Shown here: positions 54,899 through 60,386 of the stretch, in pieces
Numbering within the stretch: position 1 is the first letter of the stretch
Layout of the letters: each line of letters starts with the position of its first letter
DNA from: Solirubrobacterales bacterium
GTDB lineage: Bacteria > Actinomycetota > Thermoleophilia > Solirubrobacterales > JACPNS01
DNA: 64,000 nt
Direction: 5' to 3'
Assembly (NCBI GenBank): GCA_051306435.1
Contig: JBPPNF010000012.1
Span: 1,908-65,907 of the forward strand
Made by a program: the position numbers and the translations under genes
Notes under the pieces: model-generated
What the model was told of the DNA's origin: nothing
What the model saw: the letters and a program-made list of their open reading frames with translations, nothing else
Database searches by the model: none

Positions 54899-56056
54899 AT
54901 GCCTGATGCAGTAATCGTCGACGTCGTCCGTACCCCGATCGGCCGTGCCTTCAAGGGCTCGCTCGCCGGTGAGCGTGCCGAGGACCTTGGAGCTTTCGCG
55001 ATCAAGACCCTCGTCGAGAAGTACAAGGACGCGGTCGCGCCCGAGGACTACGACGAGGTCATCCTCGGCGTCGGCTTCCCCGACAACGAGCAGGGCTACA
55101 ACGTCGGCCGCAACGCCTGGCTGCTGGCCGGCTACCCCGAGTCGGTTCCGGGCCACATCGTCTCGCGCTTCTGCGCGTCGTCGGTGCAGAGCATCCGCTC
55201 GGCCGCCAACTCGATCATCGCCGGCGACGGCGAGATCTACCTCGCCGGTGGCCTCGAGGCCTCCAGCCGGGCCGGCGCAAGCCCGGACTTCACGATGCAC
55301 CCCAAGCTCGACGGCTCTGAGGGTTCACTCTGGAACGTCTACATCCCGATGGGTGTGACGGCCGAGAACGTCGCCGAGCGCTACGGAGTCAGCCGCGAGG
55401 AGCAGGACGAATTCGCCGCGCGCAGCCAGCAGCTTGCTGTTGAGGGTCAGGAGAACGGCTTCTGGGATCGCGAGATCACGCCGTACACGGCCAAGGACGG
55501 CGTTGTCGTCGCCAAGGACGACGGCCCGCGCGCCGGCACCACGGTCGAGAAGCTCGCGGGACTGAACCCGGTCTTCAAGCCCGAGGGCGGCACGGTCACG
55601 GCCGGCAACGCCTGCCCGCTCAACGACGGCGCGGCAGCCGCGCTGATCATGAGCGCCGACAAGGCCGCAGAGCTCGGCCTCACGCCGCGCGCGAAGATCA
55701 TCGGAGCAGTCGCCGGCGGAGTCGAGCCTGAGTACATGGGCGTCGGTCCGATCCCGGCAGTCGAGAAGCTGCTCAAGCGCACCGGAATGTCCGTTGGCGA
55801 CATCGACCTCTTCGAGATCAACGAGGCCTTCGCCGCGCAGGTTCTTCCGAGCGCCGAGCAGCTGAACATTCCGATCGACAAGATCAACGTCCAGGGTGGA
55901 GCGATCGCCGTCGGCCATCCGTTCGGCATGACCGGAGCACGCATCATGGGCACGCTGCTGAACAACCTCGAGACCAATGACAAGCAGTTCGGTCTTGAGA
56001 CGATGTGCGTCGCCGGTGGTCAGGGAATGGCCATCATCGTCGAGCGCCTGAACTAG
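54899..56056 (+). CDS. Acetyl-CoA C-acyltransferase (thiolase)
   Basis: RFCASS, NEAFA, GHPFG.TG, TMCVAGGQG; AAGGAG RBS. Confidence 0.96.
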   Translation: MPDAVIVDVVRTPIGRAFKGSLAGERAEDLGAFAIKTLVEKYKDAVAPEDYDEVILGVGFPDNEQGYNVGRNAWLLAGYPESVPGHIVSRFCASSVQSIRSAANSIIAGDGEIYLAGGLEASSRAGASPDFTMHPKLDGSEGSLWNVYIPMGVTAENVAERYGVSREEQDEFAARSQQLAVEGQENGFWDREITPYTAKDGVVVAKDDGPRAGTTVEKLAGLNPVFKPEGGTVTAGNACPLNDGAAAALIMSADKAAELGLTPRAKIIGAVAGGVEPEYMGVGPIPAVEKLLKRTGMSVGDIDLFEINEAFAAQVLPSAEQLNIPIDKINVQGGAIAVGHPFGMTGARIMGTLLNNLETNDKQFGLETMCVAGGQGMAIIVERLN

Positions 56057-56086: not shown

Positions 56087-57625
56087 ATGAGCATCGTCGT
56101 AGGTGACCGGCCCGCCGAAGGGGGGTCGGTCACTCGCATGCTCGAGCGCCTGACCGACGTCCTCGATCGTCGGAACGTCGAGTACGGAATATTCATCGGC
56201 CTGTTCGTGGCGCTGGTCGCGTTAACGATCTACCGGCCGGTCTTTCCGAACTACGACACGTACTACGCGCTGATCTGGGGCGACGAGATGGCGCATCTCA
56301 AGCTCCCGGACTACTACGTGAACCGAACGCCGACTCCGCACCCGCTCTTCAACGTCTACACCGCGCTGATCTCATTCACCGGCGGCGCGGCGATCCACAT
56401 TCTCACGATCGCGTCACTGGGCATGTACGTGGGTCTGCTCTACGCCGCCTACAAGCTGGTGAAATTGCAGGTCGGCACGCTGGTCGCCTTCTTCACGCTG
56501 CTCGTGCTGCTCACGCGCACGGACCTGCTGGCCTTCGGCTTCCGCTCGATGCTGGACATCCCGTTCCTGGCGATGATCGTCTGGGCGGCGGTGCTCGAGG
56601 TGCAGAAGCCGCGACGCGGCACCGCGCCGCTGGTGCTCCTGCTGCTGGCCGGGCTGCTCCGCCCGGAGGCCTGGCTCATGGCCGGCATCTACTGGCTCTG
56701 GCTCGCGCTCGGGCACGTGCGACCGAAGCTGAAACTGCCGGGCGAGCTCCCCTCTTACAAGCAGCTTTTCTGGTTTGCGTTTCTGGTCGTTGCGTCGCCG
56801 GTGATCTGGCTCGCATGGGACTGGATTGTCACCGGCGATCCGCTCTACTCGGTCAACTCGACCAGCGAGGTCGCCGCCGAACTCAAGCGCAACAAGTCGC
56901 TCTTCGGTGCGATCGCCGCGATCCCGAAGAACATCAGCGGTACCGAGCAGTGGGTCACGGCGATCTGCGGCACGCTCGGCTTCGGGCTCGCCTTCTACGT
57001 CTACCGGCAGCGGATGCTGATGCTCGCGGCACTCGGCGTGGTCGGCGTGATCACCTACCTCCTGATCGCCGTCGCGGGGCTGTCGGTGATCCCGCGCTAC
57101 CTCGTGATCCCGTCGATAATTCTCTGCTTCGGCGTCGCCTTCGCGCTCGTCGGCTGGGAGCGCCTCGAAGGCAAACCGCGCAAGTGGGGGATCGCGCTGG
57201 CGATTCTCACTGTTCTGCTCGGCCTCGCCCGCGCGCCGACCTACATCGACAACTTCCGCGCGCTGAACACCAGCACGCAGGACGTCTCGATCACTTACAG
57301 CCGGATCTACAACATCCTCGACAAGCCAAAGGTGCAGATGGCAATCGAGAACTGCCAGCCGATCACGGCCTTCACGCACGAGACGGTGCCGATCATCCGC
57401 TACAAGCTCGGGCTGGCCAAGGGCGATGTGCCCACCACCACCCAGCTCAAGAGCGCGCCGACCGAGGGCACGATCCTGATCCAGACCAGCGCACTGGACC
57501 CGCTGCAAATGACCGTCGTCGACCGCGTCCTGCGCAAACAATGGACCGGCTTCCACCAGCCGGGCTTCAAGTTCCGCGGCGAGAACCGCGCCTGGATCAT
57601 CTACACGAGTTGCGGGGCGAAGTGA
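56087..57625 (+). CDS. Polytopic membrane protein, probable GT-C-fold glycosyltransferase
   Basis: About 11 TM; NYDTYYALIWG first-loop acidic motif; PHPL; LLRPEAW; PRY. Confidence 0.65.
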   Translation: MSIVVGDRPAEGGSVTRMLERLTDVLDRRNVEYGIFIGLFVALVALTIYRPVFPNYDTYYALIWGDEMAHLKLPDYYVNRTPTPHPLFNVYTALISFTGGAAIHILTIASLGMYVGLLYAAYKLVKLQVGTLVAFFTLLVLLTRTDLLAFGFRSMLDIPFLAMIVWAAVLEVQKPRRGTAPLVLLLLAGLLRPEAWLMAGIYWLWLALGHVRPKLKLPGELPSYKQLFWFAFLVVASPVIWLAWDWIVTGDPLYSVNSTSEVAAELKRNKSLFGAIAAIPKNISGTEQWVTAICGTLGFGLAFYVYRQRMLMLAALGVVGVITYLLIAVAGLSVIPRYLVIPSIILCFGVAFALVGWERLEGKPRKWGIALAILTVLLGLARAPTYIDNFRALNTSTQDVSITYSRIYNILDKPKVQMAIENCQPITAFTHETVPIIRYKLGLAKGDVPTTTQLKSAPTEGTILIQTSALDPLQMTVVDRVLRKQWTGFHQPGFKFRGENRAWIIYTSCGAK

Positions 57626-58701
57626 TGAATGTGCGTGCTCTCTCTGCGCTCACAGCGCTGGCGATTGCGCTTGCGGCTTCCGGCTGCGGTGACGACCGCG
57701 CGACGACGGTCTCGCGCAACGGCAACAATCTCGTTGTCGCGCCCTTCACCGGTCAGCTGACCGACGTCGACGAGCGACCGATTGCCGTGGCGACCGGCGA
57801 GGGCGGCGTCTGGGCCACCAGCATGGCCGGCGGGGTGCTGACGAAGATCGACCCGCAGACCGGCAGGACGATCGGCAGGCCGACGGTGACAGATGACGCT
57901 CCGTACGCCGTCGACGCCGCCTTCGGCAAGGTCTGGGTGGCCGCCTTCCAGAACGACGAGTTGATCCAGGTGGACCCCGCCACGCGCAGGGTCGTCAAAA
58001 CGACAAAAGTCGCCAACCGTCCCTTCGGTCTGACTCACGGCTTCGGCTCGATGTGGGTGACCAGCATTCGCAACGAGACGGTCAGCCGGATCGACCCGAA
58101 GACCGGCGAGGAGATCGGCGACCCGATCCAGCTTGAGGGCCCGCCGTATACGATCGCTGCAGGCTTCGGGTTTCTCTGGGTGACCAACATCCGCGACGGC
58201 AACGTCGTGAAGATCGACCCGGACACGAACAAGATCGTGGGCGATCCGATCGTGATCGGCGAGCGTTCATGCAAGGACGTACCGGCCGACGAGCCGCTGG
58301 TCAACTGCGGCGCGCCCAGCGCAATCGTCGCTGCGGGCGAGTACCTCTGGGTCGCAAATTTGCGCGGGCTTGCGCTCACCGGTGGTCAGGGCACCCCGAC
58401 GCAGATCAAGCGGAAGATCCCCAACGGCGAGGTCTGGCGGATCGACCCGAAGACTGGCAAGGCCGTCGGCGATCCGATCCCGGTGCCGATCCGCCCGCAG
58501 GCGATCGCCGGTGACGACACGGCGGTCTGGGTGGTCAGCCTCGGTGCGAACGCCGTCACGCGCATCGACACGAAGACTGGCGTGCGCGACAAGCTGCCGA
58601 TCGACATCAGCGGTCAACCCACTGATGCCGCGATCGGCTACGGAAAGGTCTGGTTCTCGCTCTCGAGCGACGACCAGGTCGCTTCGCTCGAGAACAGGTA
58701 G
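57625..58701 (+). CDS. Lipoprotein with Vgb/YVTN-like beta-propeller repeats
   Basis: Lipobox ASGC; repeated G..WV....G.V.RIDP.T motif; TGATG coupling. Confidence 0.88.
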   Translation: MNVRALSALTALAIALAASGCGDDRATTVSRNGNNLVVAPFTGQLTDVDERPIAVATGEGGVWATSMAGGVLTKIDPQTGRTIGRPTVTDDAPYAVDAAFGKVWVAAFQNDELIQVDPATRRVVKTTKVANRPFGLTHGFGSMWVTSIRNETVSRIDPKTGEEIGDPIQLEGPPYTIAAGFGFLWVTNIRDGNVVKIDPDTNKIVGDPIVIGERSCKDVPADEPLVNCGAPSAIVAAGEYLWVANLRGLALTGGQGTPTQIKRKIPNGEVWRIDPKTGKAVGDPIPVPIRPQAIAGDDTAVWVVSLGANAVTRIDTKTGVRDKLPIDISGQPTDAAIGYGKVWFSLSSDDQVASLENR

Positions 58702-58755
58702 TCCGGCCGCAGTCTCGCACCGCGCCCGAGCAGCGACCCGATCTCGAGGCCCGTA

Positions 58756-58902
58756 TTGCATGCCTCAGGCATGCAAGCGATTGGCAGGCAGAAACGCATG
58801 ATTCCCTGGCCATTTCTTTTGCATGCCTGAGGCATGCAATGAAAACCGCTTGATCAGCGGGTCTGGAAACGTCTTCCGGGCTTGCATGCCTGAGGCATGC
58901 AA
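58756..58902. repeat. Array of three 21-bp perfect palindromes (TTGCATGCCT-S-AGGCATGCAA) with unique 42-bp spacers and a 63-bp period
   Basis: Copies at 58756-58776 (centre C), 58819-58839 and 58882-58902 (centre G); intergenic between convergent genes. Confidence 0.95.
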
Positions 58903-58928
58903 GTGCTTGGGAGGGGGCGGGGGGCGGC

Positions 58929-60386
58929 CTACTTGGGGCCGAGGTAGCGCAGGTAGACCTGGTTGTTGCCGGCCAGGTTGCGGATCAGGCGGTCAGCCTT
59001 TTCCGACTGCGACTGGAAGAGCACGTAGTTGCCGCGCAGGCTCGTCGAGGGGTTCTCGGAGGGGCCTGTGAGGTACTCGTTGTTGTGATCGCGCGATTCG
59101 ACCGAGACGTGCCTGGTCGGCTTGTTCCAGAGCATGAAGTTCTGGACGCCGTTGCGCGTGAAGCGGATGTCGCGTGACGGACGCAGGTTCGTTGCGTTCG
59201 AGTTGAAGAGCACGAACTCGCCACCACCGGTGATCGTCGGGTCGCCTGAGGGGCCGTTTGCCGGCCCGTCGATCGACTTCGAGACCCACTGCATGCGGCG
59301 GGTGATCAGGTCGGCCTGGGCGATGTCGGTGACGCGGTTGTTGTCACCGGCCAGGAGGTTTGAAGCGTCCGTCTGGAAAGCGACGAACTGGCCGTACTCG
59401 TTGATCGCCGGGTGGCTCGACGGCTTGTTGCCGCGGCGGCCGTTGCGCTGCGAGACGAGCTTGGTCTTGAAGTGAAGCTTGTTGCCCTTGCGGAAGCCGC
59501 GGGTGTAGACGTCGGTGCCGTCGTCGCGGTCGGCGCGGGAGAGGTTGGTCGCTTCAGAGGTGAACGCGACGAAGTTGCCGTAGCGGGCGAAGGAGACCTG
59601 GTAGCTGGGACCGTTGCCCGCGCTGCCGCCGCCACTGGCCGATGCGATGAAGGTCAGGCGCGCGAAGCGACCGGAACGGATGTGAACGTAGACCTGGCTG
59701 TTGCCGTTGGTGCCGCCGCTGGTGCGGGCGGTGCTCCAGATGCCCTTGCCGCCTCCGCTGTAGCCGAGGTTGGTCGCGGTCGAGACGAATCCGATGCGTC
59801 CGCAGTTTGCGGTCACGGTGACTTCCGTCGTCGGGCCGTTGGCCTGCTGGCCGCTGCTGCCGACCGAGACACGCGTGATGCGGCGGTTCTTGAAGTTGTA
59901 GACAAACGCGTCAGCGACGTCGTTGGTGTCGTTCGGAACCAGATTGCTGGCCTTGGAGACGAATGCGATGCAGGTCGGCAGGTTGAAGCTCGAGCCTGCG
60001 ACCGCCGGCTTGTAGGATGGGCCGTTCGCGGGCTTGCCGCCCATGCCCTTCGAGATCAGCGTCGTCCTGCCGATGCGCCACGGGGTGCCGTTCTGGCCCC
60101 AGCCGCGTCCGCGCTTGACCATGAAGACGTCAGTCGCGTTGTTGTCGTCACCGCGGACGATGTTGCTGGCGTCTGACTCGTATGCGGCGACACGCGCGAT
60201 GCGCTGGTCGCGGCTGATCGAGGCGTTACGGGATTCCCCGTTGGGGATACCACCGTTGTAAGAACGCGAGAGTAGAAACGTGGTGCGCAAAGATCCCGCG
60301 CTGGCTGTTGCCGCAGTCATGGCGATCAGCGAAGAAAGAATCGCGAGCGTCGCCAGCGCGGCCAATGTCATCCTTGACCTGGTCAC
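58929..60386 (-). CDS. Secreted TolB/PD40-like beta-propeller protein
   Basis: Signal peptide; AYESDASN.V..D.N...DVF repeats; PS.S..G..VAF repeats. Confidence 0.88.
   Translation of the reverse strand: MTRSRMTLAALATLAILSSLIAMTAATASAGSLRTTFLLSRSYNGGIPNGESRNASISRDQRIARVAAYESDASNIVRGDDNNATDVFMVKRGRGWGQNGTPWRIGRTTLISKGMGGKPANGPSYKPAVAGSSFNLPTCIAFVSKASNLVPNDTNDVADAFVYNFKNRRITRVSVGSSGQQANGPTTEVTVTANCGRIGFVSTATNLGYSGGGKGIWSTARTSGGTNGNSQVYVHIRSGRFARLTFIASASGGGSAGNGPSYQVSFARYGNFVAFTSEATNLSRADRDDGTDVYTRGFRKGNKLHFKTKLVSQRNGRRGNKPSSHPAINEYGQFVAFQTDASNLLAGDNNRVTDIAQADLITRRMQWVSKSIDGPANGPSGDPTITGGGEFVLFNSNATNLRPSRDIRFTRNGVQNFMLWNKPTRHVSVESRDHNNEYLTGPSENPSTSLRGNYVLFQSQSEKADRLIRNLAGNNQVYLRYLGPK

Follow-up and report, generated by a model that had tools for sequence, protein, structure and literature searches.

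The window is a stretch of 64,000 nucleotides (G000:C12:1908-65907), and the assembly to which it belongs, G000, amounts to 2.31 Mb in 56 contigs, with 64% G+C and a completeness of 96%. At the locus analyzed here, two convergent open reading frames end 227 bp apart, and most of the gap between their stop codons is occupied by an array of three exact copies of TTGCATGCCT(C/G)AGGCATGCAA (Table 1). Each copy is built as TTGCATGCC-N3-GGCATGCAA, a palindrome of 21 nt with a perfect 9-bp stem and a 3-nt loop. The sequence bears out what the initial annotation had described: the palindromes are perfect and recur with a period of exactly 63 bp, and the first is inverted with respect to the other two, their centres being C, G and G in order. 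None of 100 dinucleotide-preserving shuffles contained a match to them with up to 3 mismatches permitted. The same annotation had placed the array between convergent beta-propeller genes; the genes are indeed convergent and the left-hand one has weak Pfam matches of the beta-propeller type, but the right-hand one has no Pfam match. The stop codons of both genes directly abut the segment 58702-58928. The array sits inside a 75-kb contig with unique genes on both sides, and no cas or transposase gene lies next to it. When 58300-59300 was scanned against Rfam, no family was obtained by E-value; the miRNA and sRNA matches were at chance level and far under the gathering scores.

Table 1 Parts of the element at 58702-58928 and its two neighbouring genes (positions in the window).
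Feature	Positions	Strand	Evidence or remark
Upstream neighbour gene, 628 aa	56815..58701	+	Weak beta-propeller-type Pfam (Vgb_lyase, SGL); outside element
C-rich left flank of inserted element	58702..58755	.	Absent at relatives' orthologous site (empty-site comparison); pairs with G-rich right flank (ssDNA fold)
REP hairpin 1, TTGCATGCC-TCA-GGCATGCAA	58756..58776	.	9-bp stem, 3-nt loop
Linker module 1, "B-type" AAGAAATGGCCAGGGAATCA...	58777..58818	-	Diverged inverted copy of the family's 42-nt module; nhmmer best match on minus strand, E=1.2e-16 (C12:60663-60746)
REP hairpin 2 (central), loop TGA	58819..58839	.	Symmetry centre of element
Linker module 2, "A-type" TGAAAACCGCTTGATCAGCGGG...	58840..58881	+	nhmmer plus strand, E=1.2e-18; holds small terminator-like hairpin 58846-58860, then T-run on minus strand
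REP hairpin 3, loop TGA	58882..58902	.	Loop is reverse complement of loop 1
G-rich right flank of insertion (GTGCTTGGGAGGGGGCGGGGGGCGGC)	58903..58928	.	
Convergent neighbour gene, 485 aa	58929..60386	-	No Pfam match; outside element

The two 42-nt intervals between the palindromes had been taken for unrelated spacers, and this reading does not stand: they are diverged, mutually inverted copies of a single 42-nt module. Seventy-eight oriented spacers have the common consensus gaAAaccgCTTGttCAaGgGGtttt, which is followed by a variable tail of ~18 nt, and a profile of these spacers has matches in all three-hairpin arrays of G000, where the left unit always fits on the minus strand and its right-hand partner on the plus strand. 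The loops obey the same orientation, the left-hand ones reading TCY and the right-hand ones RGA. Therefore, the element is made of two 63-bp units set back to back, each a 21-bp hairpin plus a 42-nt linker, which share the central hairpin and carry a C-rich and a G-rich tail. The stems are far more conserved than the spacers, the mean pairwise identity over the 78 units being 98.7% for the former and 47% for the latter. As single-stranded DNA, 58702-58928 folds with -74.8 kcal/mol (z=-7.5) into a structure in which the outer hairpins and the flanks pair mutually; three local hairpins are just as plausible, since every palindrome is complementary to itself. Spacer tails searched against G000 found matches only in other arrays, and a ruler-type capture of genomic "protospacers" was rejected on this ground. 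Neither a GTAG nor a CGTC tetranucleotide is present at the foot of the palindrome, where the oriented consensus reads ..ggc/TTGCATGCC...GGCATGCAA/g.aAa (slashes mark the palindrome borders), so that the classical guide-based choice of the cleavage site cannot be assumed.

The flanks have a composition of their own. In all oriented copies the right flank has a high G content (47% over 60 nt, as in GGGAGGGGGCGGGGGGCGG) and the opposite flank is C-rich. These flanks could form G-quadruplex or i-motif structures, or could simply prolong the inverted repeat.

In G000, the palindrome TTGCATGCC-N3-GGCATGCAA occurs as 29 hairpins (two mismatches or fewer), which make up about 11 arrays spread over 9 contigs. 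Almost every array has three copies, and all neighbour distances are 63 bp except one. When one genome per species was scanned with gaps of 28-58 nt permitted, we obtained 26 loci, confined to three MAGs whose labels are Solirubrobacterales, Thermoleophilaceae or "Actinomycetes"; hairpins at these loci were 42 nt apart with a single exception of 43. Over all these loci the neighbour distance was 63 bp in 78 of the 83 pairs, and the arrays comprised 2-7 hairpins, mostly 3. A scan of metagenomes yielded three more short contigs, each with the 42-nt gap, and IMG/VR held no copy of the palindrome. No solo copies of the element were detected in G000 by an nhmmer profile. As judged by a heuristic ORF call, the arrays are extragenic, lying between ORFs and adjoining the 3' ends of genes, and for a REP family about 10 arrays are few. 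According to the initial annotation, a plain REP should appear across the genome as singlets or variably spaced doublets; the whole-genome count did reveal a REP-like family, but one that occurs only as arrays of fixed period.

Two further observations concern the assemblies. G010 (MAG mag.17g; e.g. L022:4454-4851 and L018:97-369) contains 82 hairpins in an assembly of 1.7 Mb that is 71% complete; its arrays reach 7 units and their spacers are far more uniform, suggesting a recent burst of the same hairpin family. In G000, 4 of the 11 arrays lie at contig ends (C32:16-99, C37:97276-97422, C40:79802-79948 and C47:30-176) and the repeat therefore breaks the assembly; some of these arrays may be the two halves of one locus.

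The comparison of the orthologous intergenic site, which had been proposed as a check, showed that the array is absent from relatives. In G002, where the flanks are 82-84% identical, the site measures 17 bp as against 227 bp here, and in G004, G008 and G014 it measures 10-11 bp; the window array is therefore an insertion. Likewise, the sites of the G000 arrays on C21 and C5 are empty in G002 and measure 21 and 27 bp there. A direct target-site duplication, as expected of a MITE, or an exact insertion boundary was sought against the relatives and none was definable, the empty sites being too short and too diverged. Leaving aside the arrays around the transposase gene described below, G000 and G002 have only one array in common. 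Its flanks are ~91% identical and 53 of the 54 stem positions are kept without any indel, while the two spacers are identical at 29/42 (69%) and 16/42 (38%) positions. Such a lack of indels in strongly diverged spacers is poorly explained by simple copy-and-decay.

Several loci have inverted arrays on both sides of an interval of 500-900 bp of other sequence, and at one of them, on a contig other than that of the window, this interval encodes a protein of 215 aa (G000:C52:56080-56724, minus strand). The palindromes lie at 55947 and 56010 on one side of the gene and at 56842 and 56905 on the other, in inverted arrays. The same arrangement is repeated in G002 (protein 83% identical) and G010 (73%), and the locus is syntenic in these three species. 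The gene is single-copy, its nearest paralogue in G000 being 66% identical. Among 20 homologues, N-H-x-H (residues 77-80) and A-Y-x-x-L-N-x-P (139-146) are invariant, giving H78-x-H80 and Y140 (in YxxLNxP) as the motif residues, and past the Y1 core the homologues keep a basic C-terminal stretch of ~70 aa (MNRRGPxIVRRKL...). An AlphaFold model of the protein (pLDDT 89.5) had as its top PDB match by Foldseek 4er8_A, the E. coli TnpA-REP with a REP hairpin (E=1.9e-5, probability 1.0), followed by the ISDra2, IS608 and IS200 transposases at ranks 2-26. By sequence the relationship is more distant: the Pfam Y1_Tnp match (E=2.9e-4, 21.4 bits) stays under the gathering score of 23 bits, the NCBIfam equivalog REP_Tyr_transpos (NF047646) scores 14.8 bits against a cut-off of 80, and searches of PDB sequences with the single protein and with the family profile returned no transposase, which was found by fold comparison alone. 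A profile search of 1.84 billion representatives gave 4003 relatives at E<=1e-3 and only 14 at E<=1e-30; intermediate relatives retrieved by the family profile exceed the Pfam Y1_Tnp cut-off, and some homologues are annotated as RayT by JGI. The protein is thus a divergent branch of the RAYT family with a C-terminal extension, outside the classical family, and the C52 gene is most likely the partner Y1 (HUH) tyrosine transposase that spreads the window-type hairpin repeat. The absence of a RAYT gene, noted in the initial annotation, is correct for the neighbourhood of the array but not for the genome, where the RAYT-like gene on the other contig is flanked by the same palindrome.

The palindrome is carried by 5 of the 15 same-genus genomes, in 29, 30, 82, 8 and 4 copies; the 26 genomes of other genera within the order all lack it. 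All three genomes with 29, 30 and 82 copies possess the palindrome-flanked gene, and the 10 same-genus genomes that are free of the palindrome have no homologue of the 215-aa protein above 63% identity. G004 (8 copies) and G009 (4 copies) have the palindrome, and no RAYT gene flanked by a window-type palindrome was found in these two assemblies, which are 90-92% complete; their few copies fit decay after loss of the gene.

G000 encodes about 10 paralogues of the 215-aa Y1 transposase-like protein, and paralogues have hairpin families of their own. One of them (C36:124-750, 66% identical) is flanked by CTGCACACC-N3-GGTGTGCAG within the bracketed locus C36:59-909, and this palindrome forms about 10 arrays in G000 with a period of 64/65 bp. 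Another (C53:20391-21017, 63% identical) is flanked by TCGCTCACC-N3-GGTGAGCGA within C53:20263-21176, and here about 9 three-hairpin arrays with a period of 63/64 bp are present in G000. In other genomes, the top homologue of G009 (69% identical) is flanked by TTGCAAGCT-N3-AGCTTGCAA with a period of 63 bp, and those of G004 and G008 by CTGCGCACC-N3-GGTGCGCAG; the association of the gene with the window-type palindrome itself was verified in G000, G002 and G010 only. The hairpin families have the linker motif CCGCWTGAACAAGCGGTTTT and the geometry in common. Since each paralogue has its own flanking palindrome, protein and hairpin vary together.

Several other loci touch on these families. A distant G000 paralogue (C34:15004-15525) is flanked by CTCGATCC-N5-GGATCGAG, and two further G000 loci (C5:7293-7664 and C40:33344-33706) are near palindromes of the TGGCAC-CAG-GTGCCA type. 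A linker palindrome, GAAAACCGC(T/A)TGAACAAGCGGTTTTC, seen for example at 58840-58865 of the window, is common to three families with differing main hairpins and resembles an intrinsic terminator working in both directions, or a second site for a protein. At the site orthologous to G000:C5:74510-74656, G009 holds a complete RAYT gene with TTGCAAGCT-N3-AGCTTGCAA of period 63 (G009:C9:24447-25485, L045); the same site measures 27 bp in G002 and about 590 bp in G007, and it resembles a hot spot for insertions, or what an old REPtron has left behind.

We consider that 58702-58928 is very probably a non-autonomous copy of a REP/BIME-type mobile repeat whose partner, a Y1 RAYT-type gene, resides elsewhere in the genome. 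A REP/BIME-like dispersed family was among the options offered by the initial annotation, and it is this option that is supported by the 29 extragenic, regularly arrayed hairpins and by the Y1 HUH transposase gene that they bracket. The whole is a REP/BIME ("REPtron")-like system of Thermoleophilia and works like a REPtron: a palindromic unit, dispersed extragenic copies, regular clusters of opposed units, a flanked single-copy Y1 gene and paralogue-specific units are all found, the clusters being of the BIME type with inverted rather than strictly alternating halves. As the GTAG/CGTC head is lacking and the RAYT score is below the cut-offs, we file the system as a variant and not as a member of the classical groups 2/3.

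By analogy with TnpA-REP and IS608, we infer that the RAYT-type protein would act on single-stranded DNA, binding the 9-bp stem with its 3-nt loop and cleaving beside the hairpin. It may then copy or move entire units bounded by hairpins. Unit-wise copying of this kind would make arrays grow in exact steps of 63 bp, as in the arrays of 4-7 units of G010. Where such elements have inserted behind genes, their hairpins and A-tract/stem/T-tract linker probably serve as a two-way transcript end or stabilizer.

The resemblance to the REPtrons of E. coli, Stenotrophomonas and Pseudomonas (PMC2817692, PMC8266576, PMC3479197) covers the short palindromic stem-loops, their extragenic position at the 3' ends of genes, the regularly spaced clusters with inverted halves, and the single-copy Y1 HUH gene bracketed by inverted units, with one hairpin family per paralogue. 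The REP of S. maltophilia, with a perfect 8-bp stem and a 3-nt loop, is similar to the window hairpin. Unlike the classical systems, however, the family described here has no GTAG/CGTC head (compare PMC8266576, PMC3733652) and forms about 10 arrays per family instead of hundreds of copies; there are no singlets, only arrays with the exact 63-bp period. Its RAYT is a protein of 215 aa with a conserved basic C-terminal extension that falls under the Pfam/NCBIfam cut-offs, and its host belongs to Thermoleophilia (Actinomycetota). REPINs, the REP doublets of Bertels and Rainey (PMC3116915, PMC3337134), are likewise non-autonomous, with two inverted halves able to fold together as a long hairpin; their partner RAYT, too, is single-copy and vertically inherited, and copy number here is low where the cognate RAYT was not found (G004, G009). 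The window element differs from them in having three self-complementary hairpins instead of two REPs, and arrays of its family extend up to 7 units. Because the A-type and B-type linker arms are poorly complementary, the long hairpin is not clearly favoured over three local hairpins. With IS200/IS605 elements such as IS608 and ISDra2, the system shares the Y1 HUH fold and the subterminal hairpins flanking the gene, but the gene is not multiplied (closest paralogue 66%), only the hairpin arrays are dispersed, and there is no tnpB. CRISPR arrays also have identical short repeats at intervals of fixed length and variable sequence, whereas the intervals here are homologous inverted copies in many three-repeat arrays, with no cas genes and no protospacer matches.

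A different reading, compatible with a REP origin, is that the array is kept mainly for the host, as a two-way transcription terminator or an mRNA 3'-end stabilizer for the convergent genes. All arrays that can be placed abut the 3' ends of genes, several of them between convergent genes, and the linker consensus GAAAACCGCTTGWWCAAGCGGTTTTC is itself palindromic with A- and T-runs on either side. Perfect stems of at least 5 bp are present in 21 of the 78 spacers, as against 3.7 in shuffles; AAA stands ahead of the stem in 43/78 (3.3 in shuffles) and TTT behind it in 34/78 (12.3 in shuffles). In the window, the minus strand has a predicted terminator-like site at 58860-58846, beyond the 3' end of the right-hand gene, and the array shared by G000 and G002 kept its stems while its spacers drifted. 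The enriched A-tract/stem/T-tract linker, the terminator call and the placement at 3' ends make a two-way transcript-ending or stabilizing role of the arrays plausible, as far as can be judged from sequence. On the other hand, the same two genes are separated by only 10-17 bp in relatives, so that the array is not needed between these two genes; the B-type left arm of the window array lacks a clear stem followed by a T-run; and a terminator explains pairing but not the 98.7% conservation of the stem sequence. As the main reason why the array is kept, we regard transcript ending as a tentative possibility. Another reading starts from the spacing: 63 bp is about six helical turns, and three palindromes six turns apart could all be contacted from the same face of the duplex by a protein acting as a dimer or oligomer, the resulting complex of fixed geometry being the selected function. 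The strict period (78 of 83 pairs, and the gap of 42 nt bar one under a scan that permitted 28-58 nt) in arrays whose spacers are only 47% identical suggests selection on the spacing, for which a helical-phase constraint and selection for a transposable or terminator form are candidate causes. The near-random spacers without indels in the orthologous arrays of G000 and G002, the periods of 63-65 bp held by the sister families and the conserved basic ~70-aa C-terminal stretch of the RAYT family also speak for phased binding, and the candidate binders are this RAYT extension, a nucleoid protein and gyrase. The phased protein binding suggested initially may be an additional property of the arrays, the period being far better conserved than the spacers, but the sites lie at the 3' ends of genes and not at promoters. 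Moreover, no candidate binding protein besides RAYT was identified, the exact period may instead stem from unit-wise copying bounded by hairpin-directed cleavage, and the argument from a strict helical phase is weakened by the sister families, whose periods include 64 and 65 bp. We find it improbable that such a complex is what the arrays are selected for. The wider proposal, that the 63-65 bp spacing is selected and that in-phase palindromes assemble a nucleoprotein complex with the RAYT extension, or else with a nucleoid or topoisomerase protein of the host, is somewhat less remote, though doubtful.

The initial annotation had also considered an orphan mini-CRISPR, in which 21-bp repeats would separate 42-bp spacers taken from foreign DNA. 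Identical repeats and a fixed spacer length provide a superficial likeness, but the spacers share a consensus and are mutually inverted, they match only other arrays within the genome, and there are about 11 arrays of which nearly all have three repeats. Pfam Cas1 (PF01867) is absent from G000, which is 96% complete, while control genomes were positive. The suggested search of the spacers against phage and plasmid databases was negative as well: the array had no match among 50,697 phage records, 72,556 plasmids and IMG/VR. With homologous inverted spacers, no Cas1 and no phage, plasmid or viral match, a CRISPR array is ruled out for practical purposes. Hardly any more probability attaches to an assembly artefact in which a repeat of the metagenome-assembled genome would have been collapsed or joined as a chimera. 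Contig ends do coincide with 4 of the 11 arrays, the assembler breaking at the repeat, but the window array is internal to its 75-kb contig between unique genes, and the three-hairpin design recurs in three other MAGs assembled independently in separate studies as well as in three metagenome contigs. A MIRU-like translated repeat or a function in translational coupling was also rejected for this locus; the window array lies between convergent stop codons, and periods of 64 and 65 bp occur in the sister families.

The founding RAYT paper reported no homologues outside Proteobacteria (PMC2817692), and later work extended the RAYT groups to many classes without naming Thermoleophilia (PMC5581495); in the literature searched, we found no paper joining RAYT, REP and Actinobacteria. 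REP/RAYT systems have been studied almost only in Proteobacteria, and the arrays described here represent a clear REPtron-like system in uncultured freshwater Thermoleophilia. For annotators they are also a warning, in that REP-type arrays mimic mini-CRISPRs and break metagenome assemblies. With at least three transposase/hairpin pairs in one 2.3-Mb genome, these bacteria offer a natural experiment on the co-evolution of a Y1 transposase and its hairpin without the GTAG guide. The preservation of spacing despite divergence of the spacers points to a ruler-like copying step or a phased protein complex, neither of which is predicted by known REP models. Should the spacing indeed be selected for a nucleoprotein complex, the "REPtrons" of Thermoleophilia would be a domesticated device for structuring the chromosome or ending transcripts, with a geometry rule unknown in proteobacterial REPs.
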